Below, piece after piece: positions 38,549-53,878 of a stretch of 64,000 nucleotides of DNA (the first letter of the stretch is position 1; every line of letters begins with the position of its first letter). The stretch is taken from contig CBDCWC010000003.1 of NCBI GenBank assembly GCA_965223295.1, positions 1,696,001 to 1,760,000 of the forward strand, written 5' to 3'. A program made the translations under genes and the position numbers. The notes under the pieces were generated by a model. It did not search any database and was not told the origin of the DNA. It saw only the letters and a list, made by a program, of their open reading frames with translations. This stretch comes from Nitrospirales bacterium. GTDB taxonomy: Bacteria > Nitrospirota > Nitrospiria > Nitrospirales > UBA8639.

Positions 38549-39991
38549 CTAACGCGGAAGATGAATGCCGTATTTTTTAATCTTATAGTACACCGTCCCT
38601 CGACTGACATTTAGCGCCTTCGCGGCTCTCTGGGTATCCCACTTCTGTTCAGTTAGGACCTTAATCAATGCCTCTCGGTTGACATCCTCCAACAAGGAAG
38701 GCTTGTCTTCAGAATCACTCTCGGGTTTGTCCTCATAGCTGAAATCAGGGGGAAGTTCTTGATAGATAATTTCATCATCAATTGTGTAGGTAGGACGCGA
38801 ACGAAGGATGACGCTATATAATATGTTCTCTAATTGACGAACATTGCCAGGCCAGTGGGCCGACAACAGCAGTTTCATCCCTTTGTCTGTCACTATGGGG
38901 ACTGTGTCCAATCGAAGTTCCTGCCCAAGCTTTCGTAAAAAGTGATCAATCAGAGCTGGAAGATCCTCTGTCCGTTCTCGTAAGGGAGGCACAACAATTT
39001 GTACAACTCGCAGTCGATAGTATAAATCTTCTCGAAAACTTCCATTTTTAATATCCTGCTCTAAATTTCTATTCGTTGCAGTAATAAAGCGGACATCCGT
39101 CAGGATTTCTTGCGATCCGCCAACGCGCATAATGGCATGTTGTTGTAATACGCGGAGCAACTTTGCCTGAGCCGGCAGGGATAGTTCGCCAATCTCGTCC
39201 AAAAAAATCGTGCCATTTTTCGCTTGCTCGATTTTGCCAATCTTCATATTTGAGGCGCCGGTGAAGGCGCCTTTTTCATACCCAAACAATTCACTCTCCA
39301 TAAGGTCGAGGGGAAGAGCGGCACAGTTCACTGGCAAAAATACCGAGCCGTTTCTCGAACTACTGTGGTGCAGGGCTCGCGCAACGAGTTCTTTCCCTGT
39401 CCCATGTTCCCCTCGAATTAGCACAGTGGCCGGGCTGTCACCCACATCAAGGATTAATTTGTAGAGTTCCTTCATCGCAGGACTCTCACCAATCAATCCG
39501 CCAAAGTGAACTGTGCTGGCAGGGCAAGACCGAATAATTGAGGATTCGGCCAAGGCATCTTCTTTTGGAGCTGAATGTGTGACAGACGGCAAGGGTCTGG
39601 TTTCGTCTTCATCGACCTGAGCGCAGGCAATTTCAAATGGGTAAATCGTCAGTCGGCAGCGGCTCGGGAGAGGAGTGGGACCTTTCAGAGGCTGATTGTC
39701 CAGGAAAATACCATTCTTGTTCTTGTTGAATATTTGGTATCTCGTTCCTTCCCATTCTATAACAGCAGCCTGTCGGGAAATGTGGGCATTATTCAGAACG
39801 ACATCATTCGAGTCGGAGCGTCCAATAGAAAGGTGATCTTTATTGAACGACACTTGCATGATGACTGCATCTTTTAAATGAACTGTGAATTGAATCATTT
39901 CAACACCATTGAACGAGCTTGCTTCTGTTTGGCCGAAACAGACTTTCTGCAACGATGACGTCGTTTCACCGTTGCTGGAGGAATGTGCCAC
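38549..39991 (-). CDS. FHA-domain sigma-54-dependent transcriptional activator (FHA-AAA+-Fis HTH)
   Basis: SIGRSDSNDVVL..ISRQ..NG (FHA); GEHGTGKE, GAFTGA, FLDEIGEL, FREDLYYRL, WPGNVRQL; AAKALNVSRGTVYYKIKKY. Confidence 0.93.
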   Translation of the reverse strand: MAHSSSNGETTSSLQKVCFGQTEASSFNGVEMIQFTVHLKDAVIMQVSFNKDHLSIGRSDSNDVVLNNAHISRQAAVIEWEGTRYQIFNKNKNGIFLDNQPLKGPTPLPSRCRLTIYPFEIACAQVDEDETRPLPSVTHSAPKEDALAESSIIRSCPASTVHFGGLIGESPAMKELYKLILDVGDSPATVLIRGEHGTGKELVARALHHSSSRNGSVFLPVNCAALPLDLMESELFGYEKGAFTGASNMKIGKIEQAKNGTIFLDEIGELSLPAQAKLLRVLQQHAIMRVGGSQEILTDVRFITATNRNLEQDIKNGSFREDLYYRLRVVQIVVPPLRERTEDLPALIDHFLRKLGQELRLDTVPIVTDKGMKLLLSAHWPGNVRQLENILYSVILRSRPTYTIDDEIIYQELPPDFSYEDKPESDSEDKPSLLEDVNREALIKVLTEQKWDTQRAAKALNVSRGTVYYKIKKYGIHLPR

Positions 39992-40156
39992 CTCTCAAGT
40001 TAGTGGATTTTGGAGCAAACTCTCTAATTAATCAAGACTCTGTTGTGTGCTTATTGGTTTTCACTGAATGGCAGTTTCGGGCTTCTCAAGAAGCTGTTCC
40101 AGTAAATTTATTGACCATGCTAACTAGTGAGGACCTTGAATTGGAAATCTGGTCGG

Positions 40157-40192
40157 TTATCCATTGAGATACTTTTTCAAAAAATTAGATAC
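40157..40192. promoter_or_regulatory. Degenerate tandem operator of the same motif
   Basis: TTATCCATTGAGATAC (40157-72) and a second AGATAC half-site 20 bp further. Confidence 0.5.
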
Positions 40193-40333
40193 TGGGTTGT
40201 CAATATTTGAAATCTTCTAACCCACTCGTTACACAACCTCTACTTCTGAAATTCAAAAAATATTCATCCTATCTCATTGAAAAACAAAGGATTTGTCAGC
40301 CAAATGTTATTTTGTCTTTTGAGTCATGAGATC

Positions 40334-40349
40334 TGGCATCTCCATTGCT
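40334..40349 (+). promoter_or_regulatory. sigma-54 promoter of the repeat-protein operon
   Basis: TGGCATCTCCATTGCT. Confidence 0.72.
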
Positions 40350-40483
40350 CTATTAAAAAAACATGAAGCAACACGGAAGACAGAACACAAAGAACCAAAC
40401 ATGTTTATTAACTTTGTCGATTGATTCAGGAAAGTCTATTGGCAAAGAGGACAACAAGTCCATTGAGACATAAGGAGGTCATC

Positions 40484-41233
40484 ATGACAAGCGCTAAAAA
40501 CAGTCAACTCATCATCGTCATGCTTGCAAGCCTACTCCACATGGGTGCGACCCTAGGATTGGCCGCATCGGGTATGGATGGAGAGATTTCTAATACCTAC
40601 GAGGGGGACCAGGTGACTAATAGCGGACAGAGCGAGCAAGGGCAGGCCAACGTGGGATCTATCGTCATCTCGGGTAGTACGGTCAAAGGAAAAATTACGA
40701 ACAACGCCGTCATCAAGAATTCCCAAAATCGAGCTGATGGGAAAGGGGCTAAGGCCAATCTGGGCACGATTAATCTGGAGGGCAGCACCTTTCAAGGCAC
40801 GCTCAATAACACAAGTGTCGTGGACGGAGCGCAGAACATGTCTAAAGGGGACAATGCCCAGGCCAACATGGGTGCCGTGAGCCTTGAACACAGCAATGTC
40901 ACCGGCCAGATTTCGAACAACGTCAAAGTGAAAAACGGCGCACAAAACATTGCAGATGGGAATAACGCGACAGCCAACATGGGATCAGTGAGAGTCAAAA
41001 ACAGCAATTACAAAGGAAAAATTATCAATTCCTGGGAGGGCCTGGACGGAACCAATATGGCGGTTGGGTCGGGCAGTGAAGCCAATACCGGTTCCGTGGT
41101 GATTGAAAGCAACAACGCCCCCACGAACATCATCAACAATATCCAAACCTCTCCAGGTGGGGCGAATGGGCCAGGTGGCAATGTGGCCACCGGTGGCCAA
41201 ACATCCAACATTAATTCAATCGTCATCAAATAA
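40484..41233 (+). CDS. Secreted N/G/S-rich repeat protein R1 (6 repeats of ~36 aa; curlin/Fap-like candidate)
   Basis: TAAGGAGG RBS, signal peptide, repeats N-x-A-x-G-x-x-A-x-A-N-M/L-G-S-I/V; no Cys. Confidence 0.8.
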   Translation: MTSAKNSQLIIVMLASLLHMGATLGLAASGMDGEISNTYEGDQVTNSGQSEQGQANVGSIVISGSTVKGKITNNAVIKNSQNRADGKGAKANLGTINLEGSTFQGTLNNTSVVDGAQNMSKGDNAQANMGAVSLEHSNVTGQISNNVKVKNGAQNIADGNNATANMGSVRVKNSNYKGKIINSWEGLDGTNMAVGSGSEANTGSVVIESNNAPTNIINNIQTSPGGANGPGGNVATGGQTSNINSIVIK

Positions 41234-41321
41234 GATGATGATCACTACAACACAGGAGGCAGTCATGAAACAACATCATCAACTCAATCAACAATCAACA
41301 TTTTTTTCCAAGGAGGGTACC

Positions 41322-42167
41322 ATGAAAACAGTCATCTCATTTGTTGCCACGCTCATGTTAGTTGGCGCGCCAGGCGCGTTTGCTCAATCACAGATTGACG
41401 GCGAAGTCAGAAATAAGGCTGAGATCACTGACTCGACCAACCAAAGCTATGCTGGAGAAAGAGGAGCCGCGAACCAGGGGTCTGTGCACATCAAGAATTC
41501 ACCGGTTGAAAGGGGCGCCCTAATTAAGAATGAGGCTAAGATTAGAAACAGTCATAACTACGCCAATGCAGAAGGCGCGGATGCCAATCAAGGGTCGGCC
41601 CAAGTTCTGTTTGGCGAGGTCTCTGGCACAGTCGACAACTGGGCCGATATTAAGGACAGTTACAACTACGGTGATGGCAGGCATTCAGATGCCAATCAGG
41701 GCTCGATTCAAGTGAAGGATGGTAGTAGCGTGTCGGGCCTGGTCAAAAACCACGCCACGATTAGAGAGAGTGATAACACTGCCAGTGGGAATTATTCGGA
41801 TGCCAATCAGGGCTCGATCCAATTATTCAACAATAGCCGTGTATCTGGCGAGGCCTATAACACAGGTGAGATTAGGAACAGTGAAAATTGGGCAGAAGGC
41901 AACTATTCAGATGCCAACATGGGGTCGATCCAACTGGAGAATGGTGCGGTAGTCGAGCGCGGTGGGAAAATTGACAACAAATTCGACGTGCGGGATAGTC
42001 ACAACCATGCGGCTGCTCGAGATTCCGTGGCCAACATGGGTTCTGTCCGAGTCGAGAATTCGGAAATTACCGGGGCGGTGTACAACGATGCAACGGTGAA
42101 GAATTCCGATAACCATGCCTGGACGCAAGGTTCACGGGCCAACAGTGGCTCTGTCGACATTCACTAA
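41322..42167 (+). CDS. Secreted N/G/S-rich repeat protein R2 (7 repeats of 36-39 aa; candidate major fibre subunit)
   Basis: AAGGAGG RBS, AFA signal cleavage site, repeats S-x-N-x-A-x-G-x-x-S-D-A-N-Q/M-G-S-I-Q; no Cys, one Pro in the mature part. Confidence 0.82.
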   Translation: MKTVISFVATLMLVGAPGAFAQSQIDGEVRNKAEITDSTNQSYAGERGAANQGSVHIKNSPVERGALIKNEAKIRNSHNYANAEGADANQGSAQVLFGEVSGTVDNWADIKDSYNYGDGRHSDANQGSIQVKDGSSVSGLVKNHATIRESDNTASGNYSDANQGSIQLFNNSRVSGEAYNTGEIRNSENWAEGNYSDANMGSIQLENGAVVERGGKIDNKFDVRDSHNHAAARDSVANMGSVRVENSEITGAVYNDATVKNSDNHAWTQGSRANSGSVDIH

Positions 42168-42176
42168 TCAGCAATG

Positions 42177-42222
42177 GCACTATCGAATCGGGGACATCTT
42201 CCGATTCGATAGTGCTTTTCTT
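42177..42222 (+). terminator. Strong hairpin/terminator directly after R2
   Basis: 15-bp perfect stem GCACTATCGAATCGG/CCGATTCGATAGTGC followed by TTTTCTT. Confidence 0.8.
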
Positions 42223-42270
42223 GAACTTCGTGTCGTAGAACGCAGAGACAATCAACAAAGGAGCCTGATC

Positions 42271-42591
42271 ATGAATCACAGAGCAACAAATGTTGGAATA
42301 TTGTTGGTTTCAATCTTTCTGATAGGAGCCTCTTTTGGATATGCTGGAGAGCTGGATGACGGAATTTCCAGCTACAATGACGAACCGATTGTGGCGGATG
42401 ATACGGCTCTTGAATCCGACCCCAATCTAAATTTTGTGATTGTAGACGCTATTTCCTCGGCCAGATCGGGCAACGGCAACAGCAATTTCAACGACGGCCA
42501 AGGCGATAACAATCAAAACAGTATTGTGTTTGAAGCGGGGGTTGGGGATATCAACGGCCCAATAACTAACATTGTGATTGAACAACCTTAG
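42271..42591 (+). CDS. Small secreted acidic N/G-rich protein with one partial repeat
   Basis: AAGGAG RBS, signal GYA; C-terminal NQNSIVFEAG..GPITNIVI resembles the R1/R2 repeat. Confidence 0.72.
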   Translation: MNHRATNVGILLVSIFLIGASFGYAGELDDGISSYNDEPIVADDTALESDPNLNFVIVDAISSARSGNGNSNFNDGQGDNNQNSIVFEAGVGDINGPITNIVIEQP

Positions 42592-42651
42592 TTTGACAGT
42601 TCTGAGGGAGTAAGACTGTCAACAATTCATAGAGAAGGAGTAGCGCACATC

Positions 42652-44208
42652 ATGATTGCTTTCAACCCATCAGCCACCACCATTATCGTTCGATTTATAC
42701 GGACTTGGGTTTTTGCTCCCCTGTTGGGCGTAACTTTGGCGGTGTTCGGTATCTCCTGCCAATCAATGGACCCCCGGAATGTAGATGTGGAGCTACCCGA
42801 CACGTTGCCCCAAGCCAAGGTGACATCGTATACCGAAGCGTTGTCACGCTTGGGAGACATGACTCAGATTTATGCCTCAGATATCTTAAAGATTCAGAGT
42901 AATCCGATCCGTGATAATACCGGAGCCTCTGCCCCGCTCGCGACCGGAGGAGAAATTCCTCGTGATATAACGGAAATGATTAAGACTTCTCTCAATTCGA
43001 TTGGTGGGCGAGTGACCTTTATCCCCTATGATCCCGCTTTTGTTCAGAATCAAACGCTGACAGGGTACTCAAATTTTGACAGGAAATTGATTCCTAATTT
43101 AGTCCTCAGCGGAGGGATTACCGAGTTTGATCGTGGACTGATCACCGAAGGGGAAAATACAGATGTCAGTTTGGAATATGAAGTTTCAGGTATTCCGGAT
43201 GCCTTGCCTTCTAAAAACCTAGGTGTTCGCTATGGGGATGAAGTCAAAGCCGGTTTGGCGCGGATTACTTTAGACTTCAATCTTGTAGATTTTCAAACCC
43301 TTTCTGGCATTCCGAAAATCAATGCTGTCAATACCATGGAGGTTAATAAGGCTCTTGGCGAGCGTGAACTTGGTGTGAGTATTTTCGGACAATCCTTTGG
43401 GTTGAAGGGATCTATGAAGAAAGTGCAGGGCCGTCATGCTGCTGTTCGACTGTTGGTGGAACTCAGCATGATTCAGATAGTGGGAAAATATTTGGCTGTT
43501 CCCTATTGGCGGTTATTGGGAGATGATGCGAACCCTGACCCGGTGGTTCTCCAAGCGGTAGCGAGCTACTATTCTTCTCTCTCGAACGAGAAGGTGAATA
43601 ATACGATTCAACAATGGCTCGCGGTATATGGTTATGACATGGACTTAGATGATGAGCTGGATGAGGCGACGAAGACAGCGTTGGCGGAAATCGATCCTGA
43701 ATTTAACCTTGATACTTCTTCGGTTAGCCTTGAGACCTTTACCAAGGTCTATCTGAATATCCCCTTGACACTTCAAGCTTTTCAGAATCGGCAAGTTCTG
43801 GCGCAGCGCCTCCGAGCGAAGGCTGAAAAAACCCGATTGGCTTCGGGAACATCTGAAGTCCCTCGTGAGACGCCAGGCCCTGTTCCGGCAGGGACAGAAA
43901 TGCCAGTGGCCTCGGATCCACCAGCTTCAGGTGAAATCATTGTCACGCAACCAGCTTCCCCGATGCCTCCGGTTGAACCCGTAACCCAGGCGGCGAGCCC
44001 ACCCGTGACGCCGAAGAAACCACAACAGATTGTGTCACCACCGCAACCGAAGACGAACCCGCAACCGTCCGCGAAACCTGAGCGGGCTTTGCAACCAGAC
44101 AAGGATCCGAAGCAGTATGTCGAGAAACAAGCTCCAACACCAGTGGCTCTTCAACCTATTGTTCGAACTGGAATTGGCCGGTTCCTAACTGAGGGAGAAT
44201 GGGAGTGA
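42652..44208 (+). CDS. CsgG/HfaB-like outer-membrane lipoprotein with PG-binding-like helices and Pro-rich tail
   Basis: Lipoprotein Cys (GISC); IRDNTG, TEMIKTSL, LVLSGGITEFD, ITLDFNLVD, HAAVRLLVELSMIQIVG; IQQWLAVYGY..DELDEATKTAL. Confidence 0.7.
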   Translation: MIAFNPSATTIIVRFIRTWVFAPLLGVTLAVFGISCQSMDPRNVDVELPDTLPQAKVTSYTEALSRLGDMTQIYASDILKIQSNPIRDNTGASAPLATGGEIPRDITEMIKTSLNSIGGRVTFIPYDPAFVQNQTLTGYSNFDRKLIPNLVLSGGITEFDRGLITEGENTDVSLEYEVSGIPDALPSKNLGVRYGDEVKAGLARITLDFNLVDFQTLSGIPKINAVNTMEVNKALGERELGVSIFGQSFGLKGSMKKVQGRHAAVRLLVELSMIQIVGKYLAVPYWRLLGDDANPDPVVLQAVASYYSSLSNEKVNNTIQQWLAVYGYDMDLDDELDEATKTALAEIDPEFNLDTSSVSLETFTKVYLNIPLTLQAFQNRQVLAQRLRAKAEKTRLASGTSEVPRETPGPVPAGTEMPVASDPPASGEIIVTQPASPMPPVEPVTQAASPPVTPKKPQQIVSPPQPKTNPQPSAKPERALQPDKDPKQYVEKQAPTPVALQPIVRTGIGRFLTEGEWE

Positions 44209-44540
44209 TGAGTAGGGTTTTTAGAGTAGAACATCTCTGTTTGCTAGCCCTGACTGGAGCGGTTTTCGTTGGATCCGTCATATTCGCGATTGCTGGAAAC
44301 AAGGAAATGGTGAAGGAGACAGTTCAGGAACTGGACGAACTTAACATACAGGCCGTTGAACAAATTCCTGATCTTCCAAAAGATGGCACCGTCAATCTAA
44401 AAGCTGATGTGACGTATGAGAATGGTGCTCCCATTTTCGATATTTACGAAGAACATGTGACACCGGAAAAAGTTGAAGATATTCCTTTAGACCAAGATTA
44501 CACAATTGATTTACAGACAAAGGGAAGGAAAAAACAATGA
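44199..44540 (+). CDS. Secreted hypothetical protein
   Basis: Signal peptide; overlaps neighbours in the operon. Confidence 0.7.
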   Translation: MGVMSRVFRVEHLCLLALTGAVFVGSVIFAIAGNKEMVKETVQELDELNIQAVEQIPDLPKDGTVNLKADVTYENGAPIFDIYEEHVTPEKVEDIPLDQDYTIDLQTKGRKKQ

Positions 44541-45286
44541 ATACTAAGAATTTTTACAAGTTTATCGCTGTTGTTCTCATGGCTGGCGTGCTCGTTCCTC
44601 CTGTTTTTGCCGGGAACAAGAAAATTATGACGATCAGGGCGGCCAAGGTCATGGCAGAACGTGCACTCGTTGAATCTGTATATGGCTTGAAAGTTCGATC
44701 GACCGAAGAAGTGCAGGACCTTGTGGCGGTCAATTTTACTGGAAAAACGGAAACGAAAACCTCAGCTACCATTGGAGGCATTAAATTTGATGAAGTGATC
44801 TATGATGAGAAAAAGGATGTGGCTAAGGCCACGGCTACCTTGCAACTCGATCAACTCACAAATATTGATGGCCAAACATTGGATCTCAAAAACAAAGTAT
44901 TTCGTCGAGTTGCTTTTGCCACTTCCACACCCTCACAAGCCGGTCCACTGAAGGCTCTACGAGCGGCTGAAGTGGATGGGTACAAACAGTTAGTCAAACG
45001 AGTGGTGGGATTCACGTTAGAAAGCCAAACTACCGTCGAAAATTATCTTTTGACATCAGATCTAGTGAAAGCCAAAGCGCTTGCGACGATCTATCTCGCT
45101 GAGGTCGAAGAGTTCGGATGGGATGAATCGGGAGATGCTTTTGTCAAAATGGTCCTGAATGTCAAGGAGGTTGGCGATGTGCTAGGGCAAAAAATTGTTG
45201 GCGAAGATGACCTGATTGTTGTCGAAGGGGCGGGTGCACAAACTGATGATTTTAGCACCCAATCTCAAAGCCAACAGGGACAGTGA
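44537..45286 (+). CDS. Secreted protein with two LPP20/FlgP-like domains
   Basis: RAAKVMAERALVESVYGLKVRS and RAAEVDGYKQLVKRVVGFTLES. Confidence 0.7.
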   Translation: MNTKNFYKFIAVVLMAGVLVPPVFAGNKKIMTIRAAKVMAERALVESVYGLKVRSTEEVQDLVAVNFTGKTETKTSATIGGIKFDEVIYDEKKDVAKATATLQLDQLTNIDGQTLDLKNKVFRRVAFATSTPSQAGPLKALRAAEVDGYKQLVKRVVGFTLESQTTVENYLLTSDLVKAKALATIYLAEVEEFGWDESGDAFVKMVLNVKEVGDVLGQKIVGEDDLIVVEGAGAQTDDFSTQSQSQQGQ

Positions 45287-45648
45287 GGCATGATATGAGC
45301 AATGATCGACACAAAACACACGCCAAGTTTTTGCTTGTTGGGATACTGTTGGGGGTGAGTCTTTTCCTTTTGCTGGGCGCCAAGTCCCAAGATGATGTCG
45401 TCCTGTTGGCGAGCGATCGATATCGTGTTTCCTCATGGGGGGACGTCCATTCACACGGGGCTTTTGTGATCGACTCTCTCACTGGAAAAACCAAGCTAGT
45501 CTATCAGCATTTTTATCAGGCTTCTGGCAACGGAGTAGCAGATGATGAAATGATAGAAGACCAAAAAGGGGTCGAAGCAGGAGATAGCGGTAATGGTCCA
45601 GATTCACATCAAGATCATCTCGGTCTGCCATTCATTAAGATTCCCTAG
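45283..45648 (+). CDS. Membrane-anchored hypothetical protein
   Basis: N-terminal TM; RYRVSSW..AFVIDSLTGKTK. Confidence 0.7.
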   Translation: MRHDMSNDRHKTHAKFLLVGILLGVSLFLLLGAKSQDDVVLLASDRYRVSSWGDVHSHGAFVIDSLTGKTKLVYQHFYQASGNGVADDEMIEDQKGVEAGDSGNGPDSHQDHLGLPFIKIP

Positions 45649-45812
45649 TTGTTTTTGGCATGTTGAAGTAAGAAAGGTGACACGCGGTACCAAGGAAGTG
45701 TCGTACACAAAGCTTGGTATTAAGTAGGGAACGTATGGAAAGAGAAAGGTGAGTTGGAAAGTGTTTTTTTACAGACCTTATAGATATTTCTCTGCGGTCC
45801 TTTGTTAGGAGT

Positions 45813-46559: not shown

Positions 46560-48039
46560 TTTATTCCCCCTCACTTCTGTTTTGACAGGTGTGTTACTCC
46601 TCATGTTCTTGGGAACTCCTTCCGTTGTGCTAGCGGAGAATTCGCTCAAAGAGTCAATTGTCAAGTTGTATACGGTCTTCAATGAGCCTCAGTATCATGA
46701 GCCGTGGGCTATGAAAGGGCAAAGTACTCGCCATGGTTCTGGAAGTATTATTTCTGGACGCCGTATCCTCACGAACGCACATATTGTTAGTGATCGGATG
46801 TTTATTCAAGTCCGACGAGGGGGACAAGCCAAAAAATTTACAGCAGAAGTTGAAGCCGTGAGTCACGAAGCCGACCTGGCGATCGTTCGGGTTAAAGATG
46901 AAGACTTTTTTTTGAATACGACTCCGCTTGAAATCGGTGACCTTCCAGAATTGAAAGATACCGTGAGTGTGTATGGGTTTCCAGATGGAGGCGACAAGTT
47001 CTCAATGACAGAAGGAATTGTCTCAAGAATTGAGCATACCCAATATGTCCATAGCGGAGCGTCCTTGTTGGCGGGGCAAGTAGATGCTTCTATTAATTCG
47101 GGGAGTAGTGGTGGACCTGTTATCAAGGATGGGAAGATTGTTGGTGTCGCGTTTCAAAGCTTGAGAAATGATACCTATGCCAATGTCGGATATATGGTCC
47201 CGGCTCCAGTGATTCAACATTTCCTTGTGGATATGAGTGATGGAAAAATTCATGGGACTCCAACCTTAGGCGTTTCTCTGCAACAAATGGAAAACCCTGA
47301 CATTCGAAAAAGTTTTCATATGCAGCCGGACCATAGTGGTGTATTGGTCAATAAAATCTACCCCGGTTCTCCTGGTGAAGGACTACTGCGTAGGGGTGAT
47401 GTGCTTCTTTCGATTGATGGAATTAATATTGAAAATGATGGGACGGTAGAATTTCGAAAAGGAGAACGGACGTTTTTTTTATATATCATGCAACAGAAAC
47501 AGCTTCATGAGTCGGCTTCAATTACCATCTTGAGAGAAGGGGAAGAGCAGGTTCTTGCCATTCAATTGACCCAACCTGTTGGCTTTGACCGTTTGGTTCC
47601 CCATCGACAATATGACAATCCCCCTACTTATTTGATCATGGGAGGACTCATCTTTGAACCACTTACTTTGAATTACTTAGAAGGCTTCGGACCCAAGTGG
47701 AATCTTGTGGCTCCCGTGGAACAGATGAATTTTTTCATGAAGGGAGAGCCGACCAATGAGCAACGTGAGGTCATTGTACTGGTGAAGGTCTTAGCCGACG
47801 AAATGAATATTGGATATCATACTTCGAAGAATACTATCGTGAGCTCGGTTAATGGGAAAAAGATTTCTCGAATGACGGACCTAATAGATGCGTTTGAATC
47901 CCATGCTGGAAGGTTCCATGTGATTGAAGATAATCATGGATTTCAGATTACCTTGAATAAGTTTAGTGCCGAGGAAGCCCTGCCTCGGATTTTAAAAAAA
48001 TACAAGATCCCGTCCGATCGGTCAGAAAACTTGAAATAA
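46531..48039 (+). CDS. DegP/HtrA-type (Deg2-like) serine protease with two PDZ domains
   Basis: GSGSII, LTNAHIV, DLAIV, DASINSGSSGGP; PDZ region PGSPG..GDVLLSIDG. Confidence 0.92.
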   Translation: MAQVPFNLNSLFPLTSVLTGVLLLMFLGTPSVVLAENSLKESIVKLYTVFNEPQYHEPWAMKGQSTRHGSGSIISGRRILTNAHIVSDRMFIQVRRGGQAKKFTAEVEAVSHEADLAIVRVKDEDFFLNTTPLEIGDLPELKDTVSVYGFPDGGDKFSMTEGIVSRIEHTQYVHSGASLLAGQVDASINSGSSGGPVIKDGKIVGVAFQSLRNDTYANVGYMVPAPVIQHFLVDMSDGKIHGTPTLGVSLQQMENPDIRKSFHMQPDHSGVLVNKIYPGSPGEGLLRRGDVLLSIDGINIENDGTVEFRKGERTFFLYIMQQKQLHESASITILREGEEQVLAIQLTQPVGFDRLVPHRQYDNPPTYLIMGGLIFEPLTLNYLEGFGPKWNLVAPVEQMNFFMKGEPTNEQREVIVLVKVLADEMNIGYHTSKNTIVSSVNGKKISRMTDLIDAFESHAGRFHVIEDNHGFQITLNKFSAEEALPRILKKYKIPSDRSENLK

Positions 48040-48270: not shown

Positions 48271-50676
48271 GTGGATAGAGAATCCAACGTTTCCATGTCC
48301 GACATCGTGTACTCCAACAAATACGAAGTTCGACAAGAGATTGCTCGGGGAGGAATGGGGATTGTCTATAAGGCATGGGATCGCATGCTTGAGCGTACCA
48401 TTGCCTTAAAAGTGATCCACCCGAATTTAGCGGACGACTCGGCCTTTGTGAAGCGTTTTTTTAACGAGGCGCGGAAAATGGCGCTTCTCCACCATCCGAA
48501 TATCATTCAAATTTTTTCTGTTGAGCGGGATCAAGATATTCCATTCTTGGTCATGGAGTATTTCCCAGGGGTAAATCTGAAGACCTATCTTCAGCAGAAC
48601 AGGCCTCTTGACGTCCATGCGGCTATCAGTATCGTTTCTCAAGTAGCCCATGCCCTGAGTTTTACGCATCAGAAAGGCATTATTCACCGGGATATCAAGC
48701 CTGCCAATATTTTGCTCGATGATGTATTGATGGTGAAACTCACTGATTTTGGTATTGCGAGAGCTTTTGGCGATGCCGCACAGACGGTTGCTGGACAATT
48801 ACTGGGAACGGTGAAATACCTATCTCCCGAACAAGCACGTGAAGACCATTTAGATGGCCGTTCGGATCTGTATGCTCTGGGGATGCTGTTTTTTGAATTA
48901 CTCACCGGGACTAACCCGCGGAGTGATACCACGACAGTTGCCATCTTGAGCAAGCTCGTGGTCGAAGGGCATGTGCCTGAATTGCATTTTCCAACCAGTC
49001 TTAATATTCCTTATGGCATTCAAAAGATCATCTGGGATCTTCTTCAATTCCGGCCTGAGGATCGAATTCTCAATGCAGAAACTCTCGTAGAACGTCTGAA
49101 GCATTTTTTGCCTGTTCAAACCACACAGATGGATTCTAACGCGGACCATACTACTGAAACCGTTACCCTTAATTTGAAGCACTCTCAAGGTCTTGGACAT
49201 GCACAACATGGTATGCCAAATTTCACTGATCTTTCTTCAGGTTCCCAGGGGAACATGTTTCAAAATGAGCCAATCCGCAAACCTCTAGAAGCGTTACCAA
49301 GTAAGGAGAGTAGAGCCTCTCGCTCAGGTGAACAGCAAGGTGTAGTTTCGTTAAGGACTAAATATGCTGTCTCTTCTTTTGCACTTTTCTTACTTTTGGC
49401 TCTGGGAGGAACTGGTTGGTTCTATTTCCAAAGTCAAATAGCAGAGGTCCACCTTGAAAATACCCCTCAAATTGCCAAGAAATCTGACAGACAAATTTCT
49501 TCGACTGGGGGCATTGTCCTTGAACGATCGATCTCGAATGTAGAGGTTCACGATAAGGATGTTTCACAAAGTTCACGTAAAGACACTATAAACGTATCTC
49601 CAGTCTTTCCTGCTCCAGAGAAATCCCGGAAGATGGAAGCCTCTTCTAGACAGAAACTTTCTTCAGCGCAGAATATCAATCAAGCAATTTCTTCATCAGT
49701 TCATCAAGAGGTTGATCCATCAACCTCTTCTTCCGTTTCATCTGGACTTGATGCTTCTGCAATAACAGTCCCAGAAAAGGCAACGCCATCTCATCCAGAG
49801 ATCACGGCTTCAACGCAGTCACTGGCAGAGACCAAGCCAACTGATAACGAAAAGGCCAATGTCGTACCAGAGCCAAACCTAGAAGTAAGCATCCCTGATG
49901 AACCCTCATCTGTGGAGTCTACAGCTACGCTTCCTGAGCCATCCACAAATACAATCCAAGAAGAGTGGGCCAAACCTTCTTCTGAGAACTTAGCTGTACT
50001 ACCCTCAGCCGAAGAGGCAAGTTCCTCTAGCTATGAAACGACTAGTGTCGCGTCAGCGCCAAACCTAGAAATGAGCACCTCTGACGAGTTTTTATCTAAC
50101 GACTCGGAGTCGGCACTTCCGGATGAAGTTACCGACGCAACCAAGAAGGAAGAAGTAGAATCTTTTTCTGAGGACTTGGCTTTATCACCCTCATCCGGTG
50201 AGGCAAATCTTCCTAGCGAGGCAAAGGTCTCTATTTCGACAGATCTCAATGAGGAAGTGCCCACTGGGCCCTTATCTCAAGAAGATTCACATCCCGCATT
50301 CTCCGAGGAGGAGGTAGAAGATAGTCAGGGAACTATCCTAGCTCATTCTTCTCAGAAAACCCTGGAATCAGACCTCCGCCTTCACGTTGAACAATTGCAA
50401 CAGGCCATCATTCAGAAAAATTGGGATACGCTGGAGCGTATTAGTTTAATGTCTGAGTCCCGTCGCATCTGGTTAACGACACTATATAAAAAGTATGAAT
50501 CGGTCCAAATCGATATAGCCCAAATCCAAACAGAATCAACGCAAGGCAGGGCAGTCATTCATTTTACCCAAGGTATTCGCCCGAACGGTGAAATCGTTAT
50601 CCCCAATAAAATAGGTCGAATCATTAAAGTGAGTATTCAAAAAAATGGGGACCAGTGGGGACCGATTATTTGGTGA
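48271..50676 (+). CDS. Transmembrane Hanks-type Ser/Thr protein kinase with long acidic linker and C-terminal NTF2-like domain
   Basis: GGMGIVYKA, IALK, HRDIKPANI, DFGIA, GTVKYLSPEQ, SDLYALG; one TM. Confidence 0.93.
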   Translation: MDRESNVSMSDIVYSNKYEVRQEIARGGMGIVYKAWDRMLERTIALKVIHPNLADDSAFVKRFFNEARKMALLHHPNIIQIFSVERDQDIPFLVMEYFPGVNLKTYLQQNRPLDVHAAISIVSQVAHALSFTHQKGIIHRDIKPANILLDDVLMVKLTDFGIARAFGDAAQTVAGQLLGTVKYLSPEQAREDHLDGRSDLYALGMLFFELLTGTNPRSDTTTVAILSKLVVEGHVPELHFPTSLNIPYGIQKIIWDLLQFRPEDRILNAETLVERLKHFLPVQTTQMDSNADHTTETVTLNLKHSQGLGHAQHGMPNFTDLSSGSQGNMFQNEPIRKPLEALPSKESRASRSGEQQGVVSLRTKYAVSSFALFLLLALGGTGWFYFQSQIAEVHLENTPQIAKKSDRQISSTGGIVLERSISNVEVHDKDVSQSSRKDTINVSPVFPAPEKSRKMEASSRQKLSSAQNINQAISSSVHQEVDPSTSSSVSSGLDASAITVPEKATPSHPEITASTQSLAETKPTDNEKANVVPEPNLEVSIPDEPSSVESTATLPEPSTNTIQEEWAKPSSENLAVLPSAEEASSSSYETTSVASAPNLEMSTSDEFLSNDSESALPDEVTDATKKEEVESFSEDLALSPSSGEANLPSEAKVSISTDLNEEVPTGPLSQEDSHPAFSEEEVEDSQGTILAHSSQKTLESDLRLHVEQLQQAIIQKNWDTLERISLMSESRRIWLTTLYKKYESVQIDIAQIQTESTQGRAVIHFTQGIRPNGEIVIPNKIGRIIKVSIQKNGDQWGPIIW

Positions 50677-50854
50677 CGCTTTTTTCATCCTTGTAACTAC
50701 ACTGACAGATGAAGTAGTCAACAGGTTCTTCCATAGGAAGGAAAAGGCATGGTTTGTGCAAAGTAGAACTAACCTTACTCGGTAATATTGACAGAAAGGT
50801 TCCATACAGCTTTCGACTTTTATTGTTGTTTTCGTCTTTGCAAGGAGGTTTATC

Positions 50855-51637
50855 ATGCGATTTCATACATTATGCATTCTCTTGATTCTGTTCCTGAGTT
50901 CTGCCTGTTCGCAGATGTATTCTTCGCTTTCTGGGCCTTCAAATGAAATGGGATTTCAAAGGTTACAAACAGCGCAAAAGAATTTAGAACCTGGGACGGT
51001 CATCGCGTTTGAGGAATCTGGAGAAGGAAGGACAGCTGTCACTCCAATCTGCTGGAAGCATCAGGCATTTCCTCGACTGCTTTCACCTCAATCAGATCCT
51101 GAGGGCGCGGTAGACTGGAAAAGAGAAGTCGATGGTTGGGTAGACCTTGAACCGGAGTATTTAGACGTTCTTCAAGTAAAATTTCCTGAAGTCCAAGATA
51201 TTCAACTGCTTCCTCGTCATGCTTCGGTTTCTCAGTATTCGGATAAAGCGTTGTCTGAAGCCGTCGAAACCCGTTCACAGCCTTGCCGTGATGCCATTGC
51301 GGCACGTGAAGCGAATGGTGAAACCGTGTATACGGTCGTCAAAGTCTTAACCGCGGATATGACGTATAGGGTGGTCGGTGTGGAACGGGGCCGTATGACC
51401 GGGAAACTTCCCCATTTACTACTTGAGCGATTGAAATCTGAACTTGGAGGCACTTCGGTCAGTACGTTTAACCAAACTATTAGTGGGTCCAGACTTCCTA
51501 TAGCTTTCCAAGCAGATATTATTGATTCAAAGAGCGTCCCTTCCTCTACAACGAAGGATGAGCGTCAGTCGATGATGCAAAAAGTGGCGATTTTAGCTGA
51601 TAGTACCTCTGATGCAGACCGTCTTCAGAAAAAATGA
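50855..51637 (+). CDS. Lipoprotein of unknown function; possible gasdermin-like fold
   Basis: LSSAC lipobox; NLEPGTVI, DIQL..ASVSQY, VYTVVKVLTAD, RLPIAFQ motifs (CDS likely, fold call tentative). Confidence 0.6.
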   Translation: MRFHTLCILLILFLSSACSQMYSSLSGPSNEMGFQRLQTAQKNLEPGTVIAFEESGEGRTAVTPICWKHQAFPRLLSPQSDPEGAVDWKREVDGWVDLEPEYLDVLQVKFPEVQDIQLLPRHASVSQYSDKALSEAVETRSQPCRDAIAAREANGETVYTVVKVLTADMTYRVVGVERGRMTGKLPHLLLERLKSELGGTSVSTFNQTISGSRLPIAFQADIIDSKSVPSSTTKDERQSMMQKVAILADSTSDADRLQKK

Positions 51638-52026
51638 AAGTGGCAAATTTACATCTTTAGTTTTTTCAGAACAATAAGAGTAAAGGTAATGTGGTGGATC
51701 AGCTGGGAATTATTTTTGCAAGTTTTCTGGCTATAGGATTTTCCCATGAAGTCAAAAAGGCATGCGTCTTAGTCAGAGAGGGAAAGTTAAGAAGTGTTGG
51801 CTGCATGAACATTTCAATTTTTAACGAAGGCATTGCAAATTCTTAGAATACTCGATCAATGTAATTTTCAGATTGCAAGAGCTAATAAGCAAGCCTAGAA
51901 GTGGGAACACAGAAAAATGCACTCCGTATTCTCTGTCTCCTGCCTTAAAGTTGAGCAGATTTTATCGCAGACAATGATTTAGAATTCGAAAATTCGTTAT
52001 AAGGTTTTTGGAGAAGGAGGTAGATC

Positions 52027-52914
52027 ATGAGAAAACATCAAAGAGGTTCTAATCATATGTATAGTATCTACGTTTCATCAAGAATATGGTTGCGAGTAGC
52101 TCTCATAACCTCTGTTGGTTTTCTAATTTTCCAGTTTGGGAGTAGTCTTCCAACTACCTTTGCGAATGGAGAGAGCGGAGCTGTGGATTGGGCATCTGGA
52201 TTGATTCAAGCGACAGGCATTGGCGTTCCCCCTGACAATGCGAAGAGCGCGACGCAAGCTCGAGCAATGGCTAAGCGTGCGGCTCAGGTTGTGGCTCTTG
52301 GGCGGCTGTTAGAAATTATCGAAGGGATTCAGGTTGACTCAACGACTGTAGTGAAGAATATGATTTTGGAGAGTGACGTGGTGAAGACGAATGTGCAGGG
52401 GTTGGTGAGTGGGGCAAGAGTGGTTAAGGAGACTGCTTTTCCTGATGGGGCTTATGAAGTGACGTTAGAGATTAACTTGGCGAGCGTACAACAATCTTTC
52501 AGGCCTGCCACCGCTCCGGCTCCACCGGCGATTGAATGGAAGGCAGCTCCTCCTTCCCCGATTCCTTCTGATGATGGGAGCTACACAGGACTTCTCATTA
52601 ATGCAGAGGGGCTCAACCTTAAAGAATGTCTCAATCCAAAAATTGTGATGGAAGATGGGCAGGTCGTCTACTCTCAGGAACACGTTGATGTGGAAATTCT
52701 AGGAGATCGCCACGTGGCTGGGTATGTGAAAGGGGTGGAAAATGCGAAAGGCCATGAGCGGGTCAAGGCTAAACCTATTATGGTGAAAGCCGTGGGCCTT
52801 GCCAAAGGCAGTCAGACTGATTTGGTTATCCAAGATGCTGATGCGCAGTTACTCCACATGGATCCTAAACATTTGGGTTTTTTAAAAAAGGCGAAGGTTG
52901 TGATTGCTTATTAA
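52027..52914 (+). CDS. LPP20-domain secreted protein
   Basis: IQATGIG, AKRAAQVVA.GRLLEII.GIQVDSTTVV, YTGLLINA.G. Confidence 0.8.
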   Translation: MRKHQRGSNHMYSIYVSSRIWLRVALITSVGFLIFQFGSSLPTTFANGESGAVDWASGLIQATGIGVPPDNAKSATQARAMAKRAAQVVALGRLLEIIEGIQVDSTTVVKNMILESDVVKTNVQGLVSGARVVKETAFPDGAYEVTLEINLASVQQSFRPATAPAPPAIEWKAAPPSPIPSDDGSYTGLLINAEGLNLKECLNPKIVMEDGQVVYSQEHVDVEILGDRHVAGYVKGVENAKGHERVKAKPIMVKAVGLAKGSQTDLVIQDADAQLLHMDPKHLGFLKKAKVVIAY

Positions 52915-52975
52915 CTTGGCCCTGTAAAGAAAAGCCATCATAATAAAAAAGTGGAAATTATATTGATTCCTATTC

Positions 52976-53878
52976 GTGTATCTCATGAGTCTCACTATGT
53001 TTAAACTTTCACCTGCTCTACTTTTTCTTTTTCTATTGTTGTGTATTCCTGTCTTGGTTTTTGGAACAGAGTTAGTACCTGTTGAAGGGCAGTATTGCTA
53101 TCAATATGGAGATGATGAGTCCGTGACTATGGCCAAGAAAAAGTCATTAGCCCTTGCACGGGAAGTGGCTGTGAGTAACTTTAAAGTGTGGGTAGAGGTC
53201 AATACCACCGTCAAAGACTTTGAGTTAGAAAAAGATTGGGTTGAGACGATTGCTGTTGGCATGTTACGGGGAGAAACTCGACAAGTTCACAAAAAAGTTC
53301 AAGAAATTTGTACGACTGTGAAGGCCAAGATTGACCCGCAAGAAGTCGATGCGCTTATCGCGCAGCGAAAAAAACAAAGTACGATTAAAGCACAAATCAT
53401 GAATCAGATGTCTAGCTCTGCCTTTGGCCTGAAAGTTTGGCTTGATAAACCTGATGGCCGATATCTTGAAGGGGATTATTTAGTGATTAGAGTCCAATCT
53501 GAACATGATGCGTACTTAAAGCTTGATTATTTTCAAGCTGATTGTCAGGTGATCCATTTAGTTCCTAACCTGTTCCGTCAGCAAGCATTTATCAAGAAAG
53601 GTGCCATCTATACATTTGGTGACAAAAACTCTCTTGAACGATTTAGAATTCAGGGTCCGTTTGGTGACGAAGTGATTAAAGCCATAGCCAGTAAAACGCC
53701 TTTCCCCGCCTCTCAAATTTCTCCTGAAACGGTGAGTCATTGTGAGCCTTATGTGGAGACGCTGGAGCGGGGCCGTACTCGAGGGATCGTATTAGAATCC
53801 AATTTGGCAAGTACCGAAGCGTCCATTTTTACGGCTAGTCTAAAGAAGTTTGAACATCAACAAGCTGTCACAAAGTGA
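52976..53878 (+). CDS. Secreted protein with FlgT-N/LPP20-like and DUF4384 domains
   Basis: AKKKSLALAREVAV; VWLDK..Y.EGD.L.I.V.SEHDAYL..LVPN..F.IQGPFG.E.IKAIAS. Confidence 0.75.
   Translation: MYLMSLTMFKLSPALLFLFLLLCIPVLVFGTELVPVEGQYCYQYGDDESVTMAKKKSLALAREVAVSNFKVWVEVNTTVKDFELEKDWVETIAVGMLRGETRQVHKKVQEICTTVKAKIDPQEVDALIAQRKKQSTIKAQIMNQMSSSAFGLKVWLDKPDGRYLEGDYLVIRVQSEHDAYLKLDYFQADCQVIHLVPNLFRQQAFIKKGAIYTFGDKNSLERFRIQGPFGDEVIKAIASKTPFPASQISPETVSHCEPYVETLERGRTRGIVLESNLASTEASIFTASLKKFEHQQAVTK

Follow-up and report, generated by a model that had tools for sequence, protein, structure and literature searches.

A conserved curli-like gene module in Nitrospirales that probably makes a surface fibre of a new kind

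The Nitrospirales operon described here is, by sequence comparison, one copy of a widespread, conserved gene module, presumably for curli-like (type VIII-like) export and assembly, and the module probably makes a surface fibre of a new kind. This reading is made probable by the adjacency of two things, a distant relative of the channel protein CsgG and secreted proteins with 36-residue repeats predicted to form beta-solenoids. A description of the module was not found in our literature search, and within the literature searched it seems to have gone undescribed so far. The operon lies in a 64-kb stretch of DNA (the window). A preliminary description of the window had listed a sigma-54 promoter, two secreted, Cys-free, N/G/S-rich repeat proteins, a strong hairpin, a small secreted protein, a CsgG-like lipoprotein, tightly overlapped accessory genes, a GIN beta-helix protein, a DegP protease, a transmembrane Ser/Thr kinase and a divergent FHA enhancer-binding protein, and each was found where it had been placed:

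38549..39991, minus strand: FHA – sigma-54 AAA+ – HTH_8 enhancer-binding protein, 480 aa, divergent from the operon
40334..40349, plus strand: sigma-54 (−24/−12) promoter, TGGCAT-N5-TTGCT, TGGCATCTCCATTGCT
40484..41233, plus strand: R1, secreted repeat protein of the tailed class, 249 aa, about 5 repeats
41322..42167, plus strand: R2, secreted repeat protein of the major class, 281 aa, 6.5–7 repeats
42176..42216, plus strand: hairpin with an 18-bp stem and T-run, between subunit and machinery genes
42271..42591, plus strand: S, small acidic secreted protein with DLDDGIS and NxNS(I/V)V motifs
42652..44208, plus strand: CsgG-like outer-membrane lipoprotein, 518 aa
44199..44540, plus strand: g113, small signal-anchored acidic protein, conserved accessory (homologues in 30/47 loci)
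44537..45286, plus strand: g249, secreted LPP20/FlgP-like protein, best-conserved accessory (41/47)
45283..45648, plus strand: g121, small signal-anchored protein, conserved accessory (30/47)
45813..46559, plus strand: secreted DUF2807 (GIN-domain) beta-helix protein (Pfam 1.3e-22; 33/47)
46477..48039, plus strand: HtrA/DegP-type periplasmic serine protease with PDZ (15/47)
48271..50676, plus strand: membrane Hanks-type Ser/Thr kinase, 801 aa (Pkinase 2.3e-50)
50855..51637, plus strand: g260, lipoprotein with no assigned family
52027..52914, plus strand: g295, secreted weak paralogue of g249, LPP20-like (by phmmer)
52976..53878, plus strand: g300, secreted DUF4384 protein (Pfam 2.7e-19)

Gene order and the repeat proteins

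The order R, S, CsgG-like, LPP20/FlgP-like and DUF2807 recurs across many loci. A repeat gene on the same strand lies within 2.5 kb upstream in 49 of the 55 CsgG-like loci whose upstream flank is 1.5 kb or longer, so that the repeat genes are linked to the pore candidate in other genomes too; one of the six loci lacking it, L061, has repeat genes downstream. Downstream counts refer to the 47 loci whose downstream flank is 3 kb or longer, and the copy in the window is itself counted in all linkage figures. Carriers make up about 1% of the sampled genomes in two phyla, and the taxon labels of loci or protein relatives include Nitrospirales, Campylobacterota, Nitrospinota, Desulfuromonas and others. 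Five Nitrospirales loci preserve the order at 53–92% protein identity, and the Campylobacterota loci L006 and L007 retain a 94-aa two-repeat protein together with S and the CsgG-like gene.

Both R1 (N 37, G 35, S 27, C 0) and R2 (S 32, A 32, N 32, G 29, C 0) are built from a repeat unit of 36–37 residues with an ANMGS-type core, have N-termini that resemble signal peptides when judged by eye, and are preceded by AGGAGG-type ribosome-binding sites. They represent two classes that are conserved across loci. The repeats of R1 are followed by a Gly-rich tail with a final SNxNS(I/V)V-type motif, and a C-terminal tail of this class, 34–52 aa long, is common to 19 of the 88 R reading frames in the loci. 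R2, with a repeat spacing of 36–39 aa, ends flush with a repeat strand, as do 66/88. Judging by coordinates in the loci checked, the tailed class is the one furthest from S wherever both occur. A search of 1.84 billion representatives gave 45 relatives of R2 at E ≤ 1e-3, and no relative of R1 or R2 was found in Pfam, NCBIfam or the PDB. At the level of sequence, the R repeat family is real and new.

The hairpin starts 9 nt past the R2 stop codon, is the strongest terminator-like site between 38 and 55 kb, and is a probable attenuator or terminator separating subunit from machinery genes. It is followed by S, which has a ribosome-binding site of its own and, in at least 65 of 79 loci, is the immediate 5′ neighbour of the CsgG-like gene. 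The DLDDGIS motif is conserved directly after the signal peptide and NxNS(I/V)V is found near the C-terminus. The preliminary description had seen in S a small secreted protein with a partial repeat; the former holds, whereas the latter is a short motif resemblance that is not significant (hhalign probability 5%). No relative of S was found in Pfam or the PDB.

The AlphaFold2 model of R2 (pLDDT 92, pTM 0.89) is all-beta, with four strands per 37 residues and no helices, a periodic fold predicted with high confidence that we read as an uncapped beta-solenoid. Foldseek found no match to this model in the PDB at E ≤ 1e-3, and the weak best matches below that threshold were mostly beta-solenoids. 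Open-ended, cap-less solenoids polymerise, according to a published account (PMC10192328).

An alternative is that the CsgG-like channel exports the R proteins as non-polymerising, monomeric beta-solenoid surface proteins, serving as an adhesin, a coat or an ice- or mineral-binding protein, with repeat number setting the length of the rod. Consistent with this, R2 is folded confidently as a monomer, and repeat number ranges from 2 to 27 among R reading frames, as in many monomeric repeat adhesins. The relatives P0130 and P0136 carry repeats N-terminal to a subtilase domain, which suggests that the repeats may be a mere module, and the Atlas match at rank 3 is auto-named ‘Adhesin’ (score 0.86, a lead only). 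However, proteins of the R2 class start and end in repeat strands with no cap, and two conserved subunit classes with a dedicated small partner resemble nucleator/subunit systems. A dedicated HtrA and an attenuator that would set a high subunit-to-machinery ratio also suit a polymer better, and we consider purely monomeric R proteins unlikely.

The CsgG-like lipoprotein and its partners

The lipoprotein consists of a CsgG-fold region (residues about 37–290), a peptidoglycan-binding-like domain (about 300–350) and a Pro-rich tail, and its lipobox Cys36 is invariant in 29 homologues. The Pfam CsgG model does not match the window's protein and matches 5 of these 29. Profile comparison by hhalign with 28 Pfam-CsgG-positive Nitrospirota proteins gave a probability of 95% (E 3.5e-8, 212 columns), and comparison with a single canonical CsgG gave 3%. 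The AlphaFold2 model is moderate (mean pLDDT 63, hairpin loops below 50). Searched against the PDB by Foldseek, it returned 25 matches at E ≤ 1e-3 with CsgG chains in every row listed, the best being 6l7a_A (E 8.8e-6), at a target-normalised TM of 0.40–0.50 across CsgG chains. By profile and predicted model, then, the lipoprotein and CsgG are remote homologues, and the CsgG-like fold proposed earlier for the pore candidate stands.

Accessory genes follow with overlaps of 10 nt (between the CsgG-like gene and g113), 4 nt and 4 nt. Pfam LPP20 is matched by 21 of 25 homologues of g249 (best 2.9e-10), and among PDB chains the g249 profile picks out those of FlgP and of lipoprotein rings (1.1e-6 to 1.6e-4). 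No Pfam or NCBIfam family matched g113 or g121. The protease, which matches Trypsin_2 (2.3e-22) and PDZ_3 (9.4e-43), probably has its true start downstream of 46477. Whether the last three genes (50855–53878) are members of the system is uncertain: homologues of g260 occur only in L001 and L003, a phmmer search with g295 recovers g249 homologues at 1e-5 to 1e-11, and a g300 homologue lies 3′ of the DUF2807 gene in L002.

PelC and FlgT are close CsgG-fold relatives that form periplasmic rings, not channels. The lipoprotein could likewise form a wall-bound periplasmic ring with the FlgP-like protein, in which case the R structure would be periplasmic or embedded in the envelope. The peptidoglycan-binding-like domain, found in 11/29 homologues, is in keeping with such a ring, as are the matches of the FlgP-like partner to flagellar disk and ring proteins and the appearance of PelC and FlgT chains (ranks 26–50) and of LPHT-ring chains after CsgG in the fold search. 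The best fold matches nevertheless include the membrane-inserted CsgG chains 6l7a, 6l7c and 4uv3, and two inserts with alternating hydrophobicity sit at the positions of the CsgG transmembrane hairpins; we know of no PelC-type ring with inserts of this kind. A ring therefore seems quite improbable to us.

Proposed transcriptional control

The sigma-54 motif lies 135 nt upstream of the R1 ATG and has only two matches in the window, both strands counted. Among the 64 R genes it stands in front of 8 (background rate 0.003 per 350 nt), with examples in L001, L003, L005, L013, L064 and L089. The divergent activator (FHA 1.4e-12, Sigma54_activat 4.5e-68, AAA_lid_14 3.9e-17, HTH_8 2.8e-10) has a GAFTGA loop. 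A homologue occupies the same place in three other loci, full-length in L003 and as fragments in L001 and L002. The kinase, which on visual inspection has one membrane span, is present in L003 and absent from L001, whose activator is a pseudogene. It is likely the input to the FHA activator, a link that we infer only from co-occurrence in L003 and joint absence or breakage in L001. In Myxococcus xanthus, FHA-domain sigma-54 enhancer-binding proteins are under Ser/Thr kinase control; the window's activator is similar in joining FHA, AAA+ and HTH domains and in sharing its locus with a Hanks-type kinase, and differs in its target, a putative fibre export operon.

Finds of the activator are limited to three Nitrospirales loci and a single one from Syntrophaceae; the kinase was found in one, and neither of the two within the flanks (up to 6 kb) of any of 80 metagenome loci. 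The control by FHA and sigma-54 that had been put forward for the system is, together with the kinase, a lineage-specific add-on outside the conserved core. The close relative L001, with its broken activator and missing kinase, might suggest that what this genome carries is a module in decay or no longer expressed, with non-functional repeat genes, but this is very hard to credit given that the window's genes are all intact, with ribosome-binding sites before R1, R2 and S and translationally coupled genes downstream, that Nitrospirales loci keep their order and identity, and that R2 is modelled so confidently.

Known systems and a proposed mechanism

The same genome carries a canonical curli operon elsewhere, and the module is therefore a separate, parallel system. 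Curlin and Fap models in Pfam match nothing in the window, yet they find this genuine curli operon; Curlin_rpt alone has 19 matches in the whole genome, none of them in the window. Both systems have Sec-exported, Cys-free, N/G/S-rich subunits of imperfect repeats predicted as uncapped beta-solenoids, two subunit classes, a CsgG-fold outer-membrane lipoprotein and small secreted accessories encoded beside the channel gene. Unlike curli of E. coli and relatives, the module has a repeat outside the reach of Curlin_rpt and no recognisable csgE, csgF, csgC or fap gene by Pfam, and searches did not relate S to CsgE or CsgF. Its candidate channel lies beyond the Pfam CsgG model and has the additional domain and tail, and its FlgP/LPP20-like, DUF2807 and HtrA partners are absent from curli operons. 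The interpretation in the preliminary description is supported, and survived all three computational tests that it had named as able to refute it: the fold of the pore candidate, the linkage of repeat genes to it, and matches of the repeats to curlin or Fap models.

Other systems share single elements. HfaB of the Caulobacter holdfast anchor is, like the module's lipoprotein, CsgG-related, and exports small polymer-forming anchor proteins; to our knowledge HfaA, HfaB and HfaD include neither 36-residue repeats nor S. An NCBIfam search gave no match, and an HfaD cluster at rank 22 of the Atlas matches (score 0.75) is a weak lead only. Pseudomonas Fap also combines beta-solenoid repeat subunits, minor and major, with a dedicated protease, and its fibre corresponds to the one predicted here. 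The module, however, has a CsgG fold as candidate channel instead of a FapF-type barrel, and the match between FapC (9u4u_A) and the R2 model is poor (E 0.15, TM 0.11–0.15). Finally, g249 is a member of the LPP20/FlgP family, whose proteins form large rings beneath the outer membrane in the FlgP/FlgT/FlgO systems of Vibrio and Campylobacter, and FlgT has a CsgG-like fold in common with the lipoprotein; in the module, in contrast, the FlgP-like protein is encoded with a lipoprotein of secretion type and with repeat proteins as putative cargo, and the gene lists show no flagellar genes beside it.

We infer export, extracellular location, polymerisation, fibre formation and amyloid character of the R proteins, and a complete curli-like export and assembly module, mechanism included, is the best explanation and in our judgement a rather probable one. 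Unfolded R subunits would leave the periplasm by way of a CsgG-like oligomer acting as an outer-membrane channel, and once outside they would fold and build a fibre by end-to-end stacking, with R2 as the major subunit. R1, with its class-specific C-terminal tail, and S would anchor the fibre to the channel or nucleate it there, as CsgB and CsgF do in curli. The channel may be held to the cell wall by the peptidoglycan-binding domain and the FlgP-like protein, and HtrA would clear misfolded subunits from the periplasm. In this Nitrospirales lineage, the membrane Ser/Thr kinase would switch expression of the module through the FHA domain of its sigma-54 activator.

Organization and regulation of the locus

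All of the features listed in the preliminary description are present in the window, where a divergently encoded activator and two genes for secreted repeat proteins, R1 and R2, are followed by a candidate channel gene and a run of further genes.

Features of the module (coordinates or position, strand, description)
38549-39991 (-): FHA activator, divergent, an enhancer-binding protein with FHA, sigma-54 AAA+ and HTH domains
40334-40349 (+): sigma-54 promoter, TGGCATCTCCATTGCT, with GG and GC 10 nt apart, of the TGGCAC-N5-TTGCW type
40484-41233: R1, 249 aa, signal-peptide-like N-terminus, no cysteine
41322-42167: R2, 281 aa, signal-peptide-like N-terminus, no cysteine
42176-42216: hairpin, 18-bp stem and T-run, 9 nt 3' of the R2 stop codon
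42271-42591: S, 106 aa, small acidic secreted protein
42652-44208: candidate channel lipoprotein, 518 aa
After the channel gene: g113, g249 and g121, three accessory genes with overlaps of 10, 4 and 4 nt
After g121: DUF2807/GIN protein (Pfam E 1.3e-22)
After the DUF2807 gene: HtrA/DegP protease (Pfam Trypsin_2 2.3e-22, PDZ_6, PDZ_2, PDZ_3 9.4e-43)
After HtrA: membrane Ser/Thr kinase (Pkinase 2.3e-50)
After the kinase: g260, g295 and g300, three further secreted proteins, g300 with DUF4384; putative members only

The promoter claimed at 40334 is borne out by the motif, which lies 135 nt 5' of the R1 start codon. A slightly relaxed form of this motif occurs only twice in the whole window when both strands are searched; the second occurrence, TTGGCATGCCCTTTGCT, is at 59363-59379 (+). 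The strong hairpin described after the repeat genes is the strongest terminator-like site across 38-55 kb, and the sequence likewise bears out both the secreted, Cys-free, N/G/S-rich character of R1 and R2 and the tight overlap of the accessory genes. The GIN beta-helix protein, DegP protease, transmembrane Ser/Thr kinase and divergent FHA enhancer-binding protein are each supported by Pfam domains. The protease combines trypsin-like and PDZ domains with a hydrophobic N-terminus in translation, as an exported enzyme of this type should, and the activator is identified as a sigma-54 activator by matches to Sigma54_activat (4.5e-68) and HTH_8 (2.8e-10) and by a GAFTGA motif in its translation.

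Adjoining the activator, at 36539-38035 (-), is an autotransporter beta-domain (Pfam 4.5e-61) with a short passenger, homologues of which lie on the same side of the module in two other Nitrospirales loci, L001 (60% identity) and L003 (33%). A 580-aa protein at 34547-36289 (-), with cytochrome c motifs (Cytochrome_CBB3 3.8e-10) and a weak dockerin-like match, is apparently unrelated to the module. A genomic-island origin or recent insertion was considered and set aside, as the window contains no tRNA and no striking GC shift; recent insertion is also unsupported by the flanking autotransporter and thioredoxin-like genes, which are syntenic in L001.

A sigma-54 motif is found 5' of 8 of the 64 R genes with enough upstream DNA, compared with an expectation of 0.003 per 350 nt, and these eight sites are among only 13 occurrences in 1.4 Mb of locus sequence on both strands. 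The motif precedes R1 in L001, L003 and L005, and also R2 in L003 and L005. Phospho-threonine is the ligand of FHA domains, and Myxococcus provides examples of FHA sigma-54 activators under kinase control. Beyond the window, the FHA activator was detected in the Nitrospirales loci L001-L003 and beside a broken channel copy in L008, a Syntrophaceae locus, but nowhere else, and the kinase was detected in L003 alone; of the 80 metagenome loci, with flanks reaching up to 6 kb, none has either. The closest relative, L001, lacks the kinase and retains only short ORF pieces of the activator, although the sigma-54 motif before R1 is kept. This single case of loss fits a kinase-activator pair but does not prove one. 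An inserted gene encoding a 789-aa Sel1-repeat/coiled-coil/caspase (Peptidase_C14) protein adjoins the activator fragments in this region (L001 4029-7207).

A candidate CsgG-like channel and its putative repeat-protein cargo

The protein encoded at 42652-44208 had been described as a CsgG/HfaB-like lipoprotein. It has no match to Pfam CsgG (PF03783) at E<=0.1, and a whole-genome PF03783 search missed it and matched two other genes. Among 29 homologues, Pfam CsgG matches five weakly (best 2.2e-4) and PG_binding_1 matches 11. A search of PDB sequences with the family profile returned nothing significant, the best match being a peptidoglycan-binding protein (E 0.38). The family itself is large and strongly conserved, with 782 matches at E<=1e-3 among 7999 scored candidates. 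The best 120 relatives are all at least 55% identical, most are without a name, and source labels in the family include Nitrospirota, Nitrospinota, Desulfuromonas, Desulfobacteraceae and Pseudomonadota. Across 29 aligned members, the lipobox cysteine and 67 further columns do not vary.

Comparison of predicted structures and of profiles points to CsgG. The AlphaFold2 model of the channel lipoprotein is moderate in quality (pLDDT 63 overall, 70-92 in core blocks and below 50 in hairpin loops). The Foldseek comparison proposed in the preliminary description gave 25 matches at E<=1e-3, with CsgG, membrane-inserted forms included, in all of the matches displayed (best E 8.8e-6, target-normalized TM 0.40-0.50); FlgT, an LPHT-ring chain and PelC rank after the CsgG chains. 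Alignment by hhalign to 28 Pfam-CsgG-positive Nitrospirota proteins yielded 95% probability (E 3.5e-8, 212 columns, residues 24-287), and alignment to one or two canonical CsgG sequences gave only 3%. The CsgG channel of curli is a nonameric 36-stranded outer-membrane barrel, and two inserts of the channel lipoprotein that align with CsgG hairpin regions alternate in hydrophobicity. The original assignment thus stands on the Foldseek matches, the hhalign result and the invariant lipobox cysteine: the predicted fold and sequence profiles place the protein with CsgG at superfamily level, and its homology to CsgG is highly probable. We conclude that it is a remote CsgG homologue with a peptidoglycan-binding-like domain and a Pro-rich tail, and we infer that it forms a pore. 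Some source names call its homologues ‘DUF4384 domain-containing’, which would have joined it to g300 through a fusion; Pfam lists no DUF4384 match in the homologues so named, and therefore no such argument is made here.

R1 and R2 are dominated by Asn, Gly, Ser and Ala, with a repeat spacing of 36-39 residues and a core of A-N-x-G-S, and neither matches any family in Pfam (E<=0.1) or NCBIfam. An exhaustive HMMER search of 1.84 billion representative proteins recovered 45 relatives of R2 at E<=1e-3, 13 of them at E<=1e-10, compared with one from a word-indexed search, and these relatives carry the same 36-residue unit. An HMM derived from 53 such units picked out 96 ORFs across the retrieved loci; no R genes were found elsewhere in the source genome beyond the window's own. 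Two relatives, P0130 and P0136, are subtilase (Peptidase_S8) proteins whose N-terminal part consists of these 36-residue repeats, and therefore the repeat module is also used outside the CsgG-like operon.

The AlphaFold2 model of R2, built with the alignment of its relatives, has a mean pLDDT of 92 and a pTM of 0.89. It is all-beta, with four strands (one long, three short) per 37 residues, and has no helices or caps. Against the PDB, Foldseek found no match at E<=1e-3. The weak top matches were mostly beta-solenoids (pentapeptide-repeat proteins, designed solenoids and pectate lyases), and no CsgA chain was among the matches listed. Because of the periodic strand pattern and the kind of weak matches obtained, R2 is predicted with good confidence to be a beta-solenoid. 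Complex prediction for two copies of mature R2 scored 0.32 (mark 0.42).

The R proteins fall into classes by their C-termini, scored on 88 R ORFs with distinct C-termini in the loci. Most (66/88) resemble R2 in ending within six residues of the last repeat, 19 have an R1-like Gly-rich tail of 34-52 residues that ends in an S-N-K-N-S-V-V-type motif, and three have a different 11-residue tail. The untailed class adjoins S, and where both classes occur (L003, L020, L029-L036, L074 and L087 were inspected) the tailed class is furthest from it. Repeat number varies widely in the tailed class, up to 27 domains by the unit HMM; the commonest count overall is seven (17/88), with some ORFs cut by contig ends.

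S forms a family of its own, with a near-invariant D-L-D-D-G-I-S directly after the signal peptide, then an amphipathic stretch, a low-complexity linker and an N-x-N-S-(I/V)-V motif that resembles the tail of the R1 class. It has no relative in Pfam or the PDB. Of the earlier claim of a small secreted protein with a partial repeat, the small secreted protein stands and the true repeat is unsupported, since comparison with the repeat unit was not significant (hhalign probability 5%, all hmmsearch E values at least 0.066). Among the accessory proteins, the window's g249 alone has no Pfam match; 21 of its 25 homologues match LPP20 (PF02169, best 2.9e-10), and the family profile matches FlgP and related lipoprotein ring chains in the PDB (1.1e-6 to 1.6e-4). 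By these profile matches, the g249 family belongs to LPP20/FlgP. No relatives of g113 or g121 were found outside the module in Pfam or NCBIfam, and g295 is a weak paralogue of g249. Among the loci searched, homologues of g260 are confined to L001 and L003, and those of g300 to L002.

Conservation of the module and comparison with curli, Fap and Hfa

Five Nitrospirales MAG loci, with channel identities of 53-89%, keep the order R1, R2, S, channel, g113, g249, g121 and DUF2807, and HtrA follows in four of the five. A metagenome scan covering 600 candidate stretches yielded 217 relatives, and the best 80 of these were retained. Linkage was counted over 88 loci with the window's own copy included. 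Where at least 1.5 kb of upstream DNA was present, a repeat gene lay within 2.5 kb upstream on the same strand in 49 of 55 loci; the six without one are L055, L058, L061, L065, L072 and L084, and in L061 the R genes are downstream. S was found by phmmer in 65/79 loci, an underestimate because L006, L007, L079, L080 and L086 have S by eye. The conserved order of R, S and CsgG-like genes that the preliminary description had proposed to look for is therefore seen well beyond the source genome. With downstream DNA of 3 kb or more, 47 loci could be scored for the later genes: g249 is present in 41, DUF2807 in 33, g113 and g121 in 30 each, and HtrA in 15. We regard it as nearly certain that these genes make up a conserved functional module.

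Two Campylobacterota MAGs carry a compact variant (L006 1514-7928 and L007 95-4717), which keeps a 94-aa two-repeat protein, S and the channel, the latter with an extra C-terminal region that is LPP20-like by eye. In L007 the compact module is preceded by a 663-aa protein in which a true Pfam CsgG domain (2.8e-10) accompanies a FlgT_N-like stretch, and followed by what reads by eye as an outer-membrane-factor/ABC-type exporter set. In the Syntrophaceae MAG, a frame change and a stop (1 TAA) split the channel gene (L008 2018-3044), which has no neighbouring repeat genes; this copy is either decayed or an assembly error. The module is otherwise patchy: the survey detected it in 1 of 200 other sampled Nitrospirota genomes and 2 of 300 others from the phylum of the Syntrophaceae MAG, and two same-genus genomes gave no match at E<=1e-20. 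Such a scattered distribution, combined with high identity between different labelled phyla, suggests that the module has spread horizontally.

The source genome also carries a canonical curli operon on the same contig (~204-211 kb; L009, L093-L100), ~1.5 Mb from the module. It encodes several Curlin_rpt proteins (220-408 aa as ORFs, one matching at 4.1e-52), CsgE (5.4e-17), CsgF (8.4e-33) and a 314-aa CsgG (4.7e-53). In L009, a partial sigma-54-activator-like ORF lies directly 3' of the curli CsgG. Genome-wide, Curlin_rpt (PF07012) has 19 matches, all at 205-209 kb of this contig and none in the window. Curli subunits are built of curlin repeats, whereas R1 and R2 match no such repeat in Pfam; for 24 repeat proteins, Curlin_rpt is absent from the 25 listed of 32 families, and the other seven match at most one repeat protein each. 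Curli also has CsgE, CsgF, CsgC or CsgH accessories, in contrast to the module, in which S, g113, g249 and g121 have no Pfam match to CsgE, CsgF, CsgC or CsgH; neither CsgE nor CsgF is among the Pfam matches for 33 aligned S members.

Fap is no closer. No Pfam Fap family, FapF included, matches the module proteins or the repeat proteins, and FapC (9u4u_A) appears against the R2 model only at Foldseek rank 37 (E 0.15, TM 0.11-0.15). The Caulobacter Hfa system is represented only by HfaD, a lead at 0.75 in the ESM Atlas, where the leads for S and R2 all score below 0.9 and otherwise read ‘hypothetical protein’ and ‘Adhesin’; NCBIfam gives no Hfa match for R1 or R2. The earlier statements that the repeats are of neither curlin nor Fap type, and that no csgE/F/C or fap genes are recognizable, thus hold, with the genome's own curli operon as a positive control for the curli models. 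Because curli models succeed on that operon yet fail on the window genes, which is the cleanest evidence available, the sequences argue for a parallel system and not a curli variant. The proposal of a separate system therefore survives the computational tests able to refute it, namely pore fold, linkage and curlin/Fap models, and we class the module as type VIII-like secretion in which the cargo, the adaptor and the bracing proteins are all new.

Proposed mechanism and significance

We propose that the R subunits are Sec-exported, kept unfolded and passed through an oligomeric CsgG-like channel, which would be held to the wall by its own peptidoglycan-binding domain and a FlgP-like ring. Outside the cell, folding would be followed by end-to-end stacking, since the solenoid lacks caps; the 2023 paper on curli architecture makes the general point that the absence of caps in open-ended solenoids leads to polymerization (PMC10192328). 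Tethering or seeding of the fibre may fall to S, whose N-terminus is conserved, and to the tailed R1 class, in parallel with CsgF and CsgB of curli. HtrA would clear misfolded subunits, and the hairpin may keep subunit transcripts in excess of those for the machinery. Export of the R proteins through the channel is fairly likely, and the mechanism as a whole is only a little less so; for a polymeric fibre, still hypothetical, we consider the chances evenly balanced.

To our knowledge, curli and Fap are the only dedicated Gram-negative amyloid fibre systems understood in detail. Those two are also the paradigms in the relevant part of a 2025 review (PMC12822426). The accessible text of a 2012 curli survey, which reports CsgA homologues with up to 22 repeats, contains no word beginning with ‘Nitrospir’ (PMC3521004), and the 2023 architecture paper, in the part concerned, deals with curlin-repeat proteins (PMC10192328). 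No paper in the full-text literature searched describes a CsgG-like channel combined with such repeats, with LPP20/FlgP partners or with DUF4384. The module is notable for being conserved, widespread and in no paper searched, in the same genome as a true curli operon.

Tentatively, and with slightly more doubt than confidence, we suggest that it represents, beside curli and Fap, a third major family of functional-amyloid-like fibres in Gram-negative bacteria. Its fibres would be beta-solenoids of 36-residue repeats and would leave the cell through a CsgG-type channel, anchored to the wall and braced by a FlgP-like ring, with S and the tailed R1 class as a new tether/nucleator pair. The module would spread by gene transfer among Nitrospirota, Nitrospinota, Campylobacterota, Pseudomonadota (as labelled) and sulfate/metal-reducer lineages. 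In Nitrospirales it would be coupled to phospho-threonine/sigma-54 signalling, and it would form an evolutionary link between type VIII secretion and flagellar outer-membrane disk proteins.

R2 offers a new, confidently predicted repeat scaffold that could serve engineered protein materials, and as a nanopore variant the CsgG relative also deserves attention. The presence of curli and the new module in one genome provides a natural case for how two parallel fibre systems stay apart. If the proposal is true, a third system with the same channel fold and entirely different cargo, adaptor and bracing proteins would separate the essential features of type VIII secretion from the interchangeable ones, and would put a name to a component of matrix or adhesion in little-studied environmental bacteria, among them the Nitrospirales and relatives labelled as Nitrospinota, Desulfuromonas and Campylobacterota.
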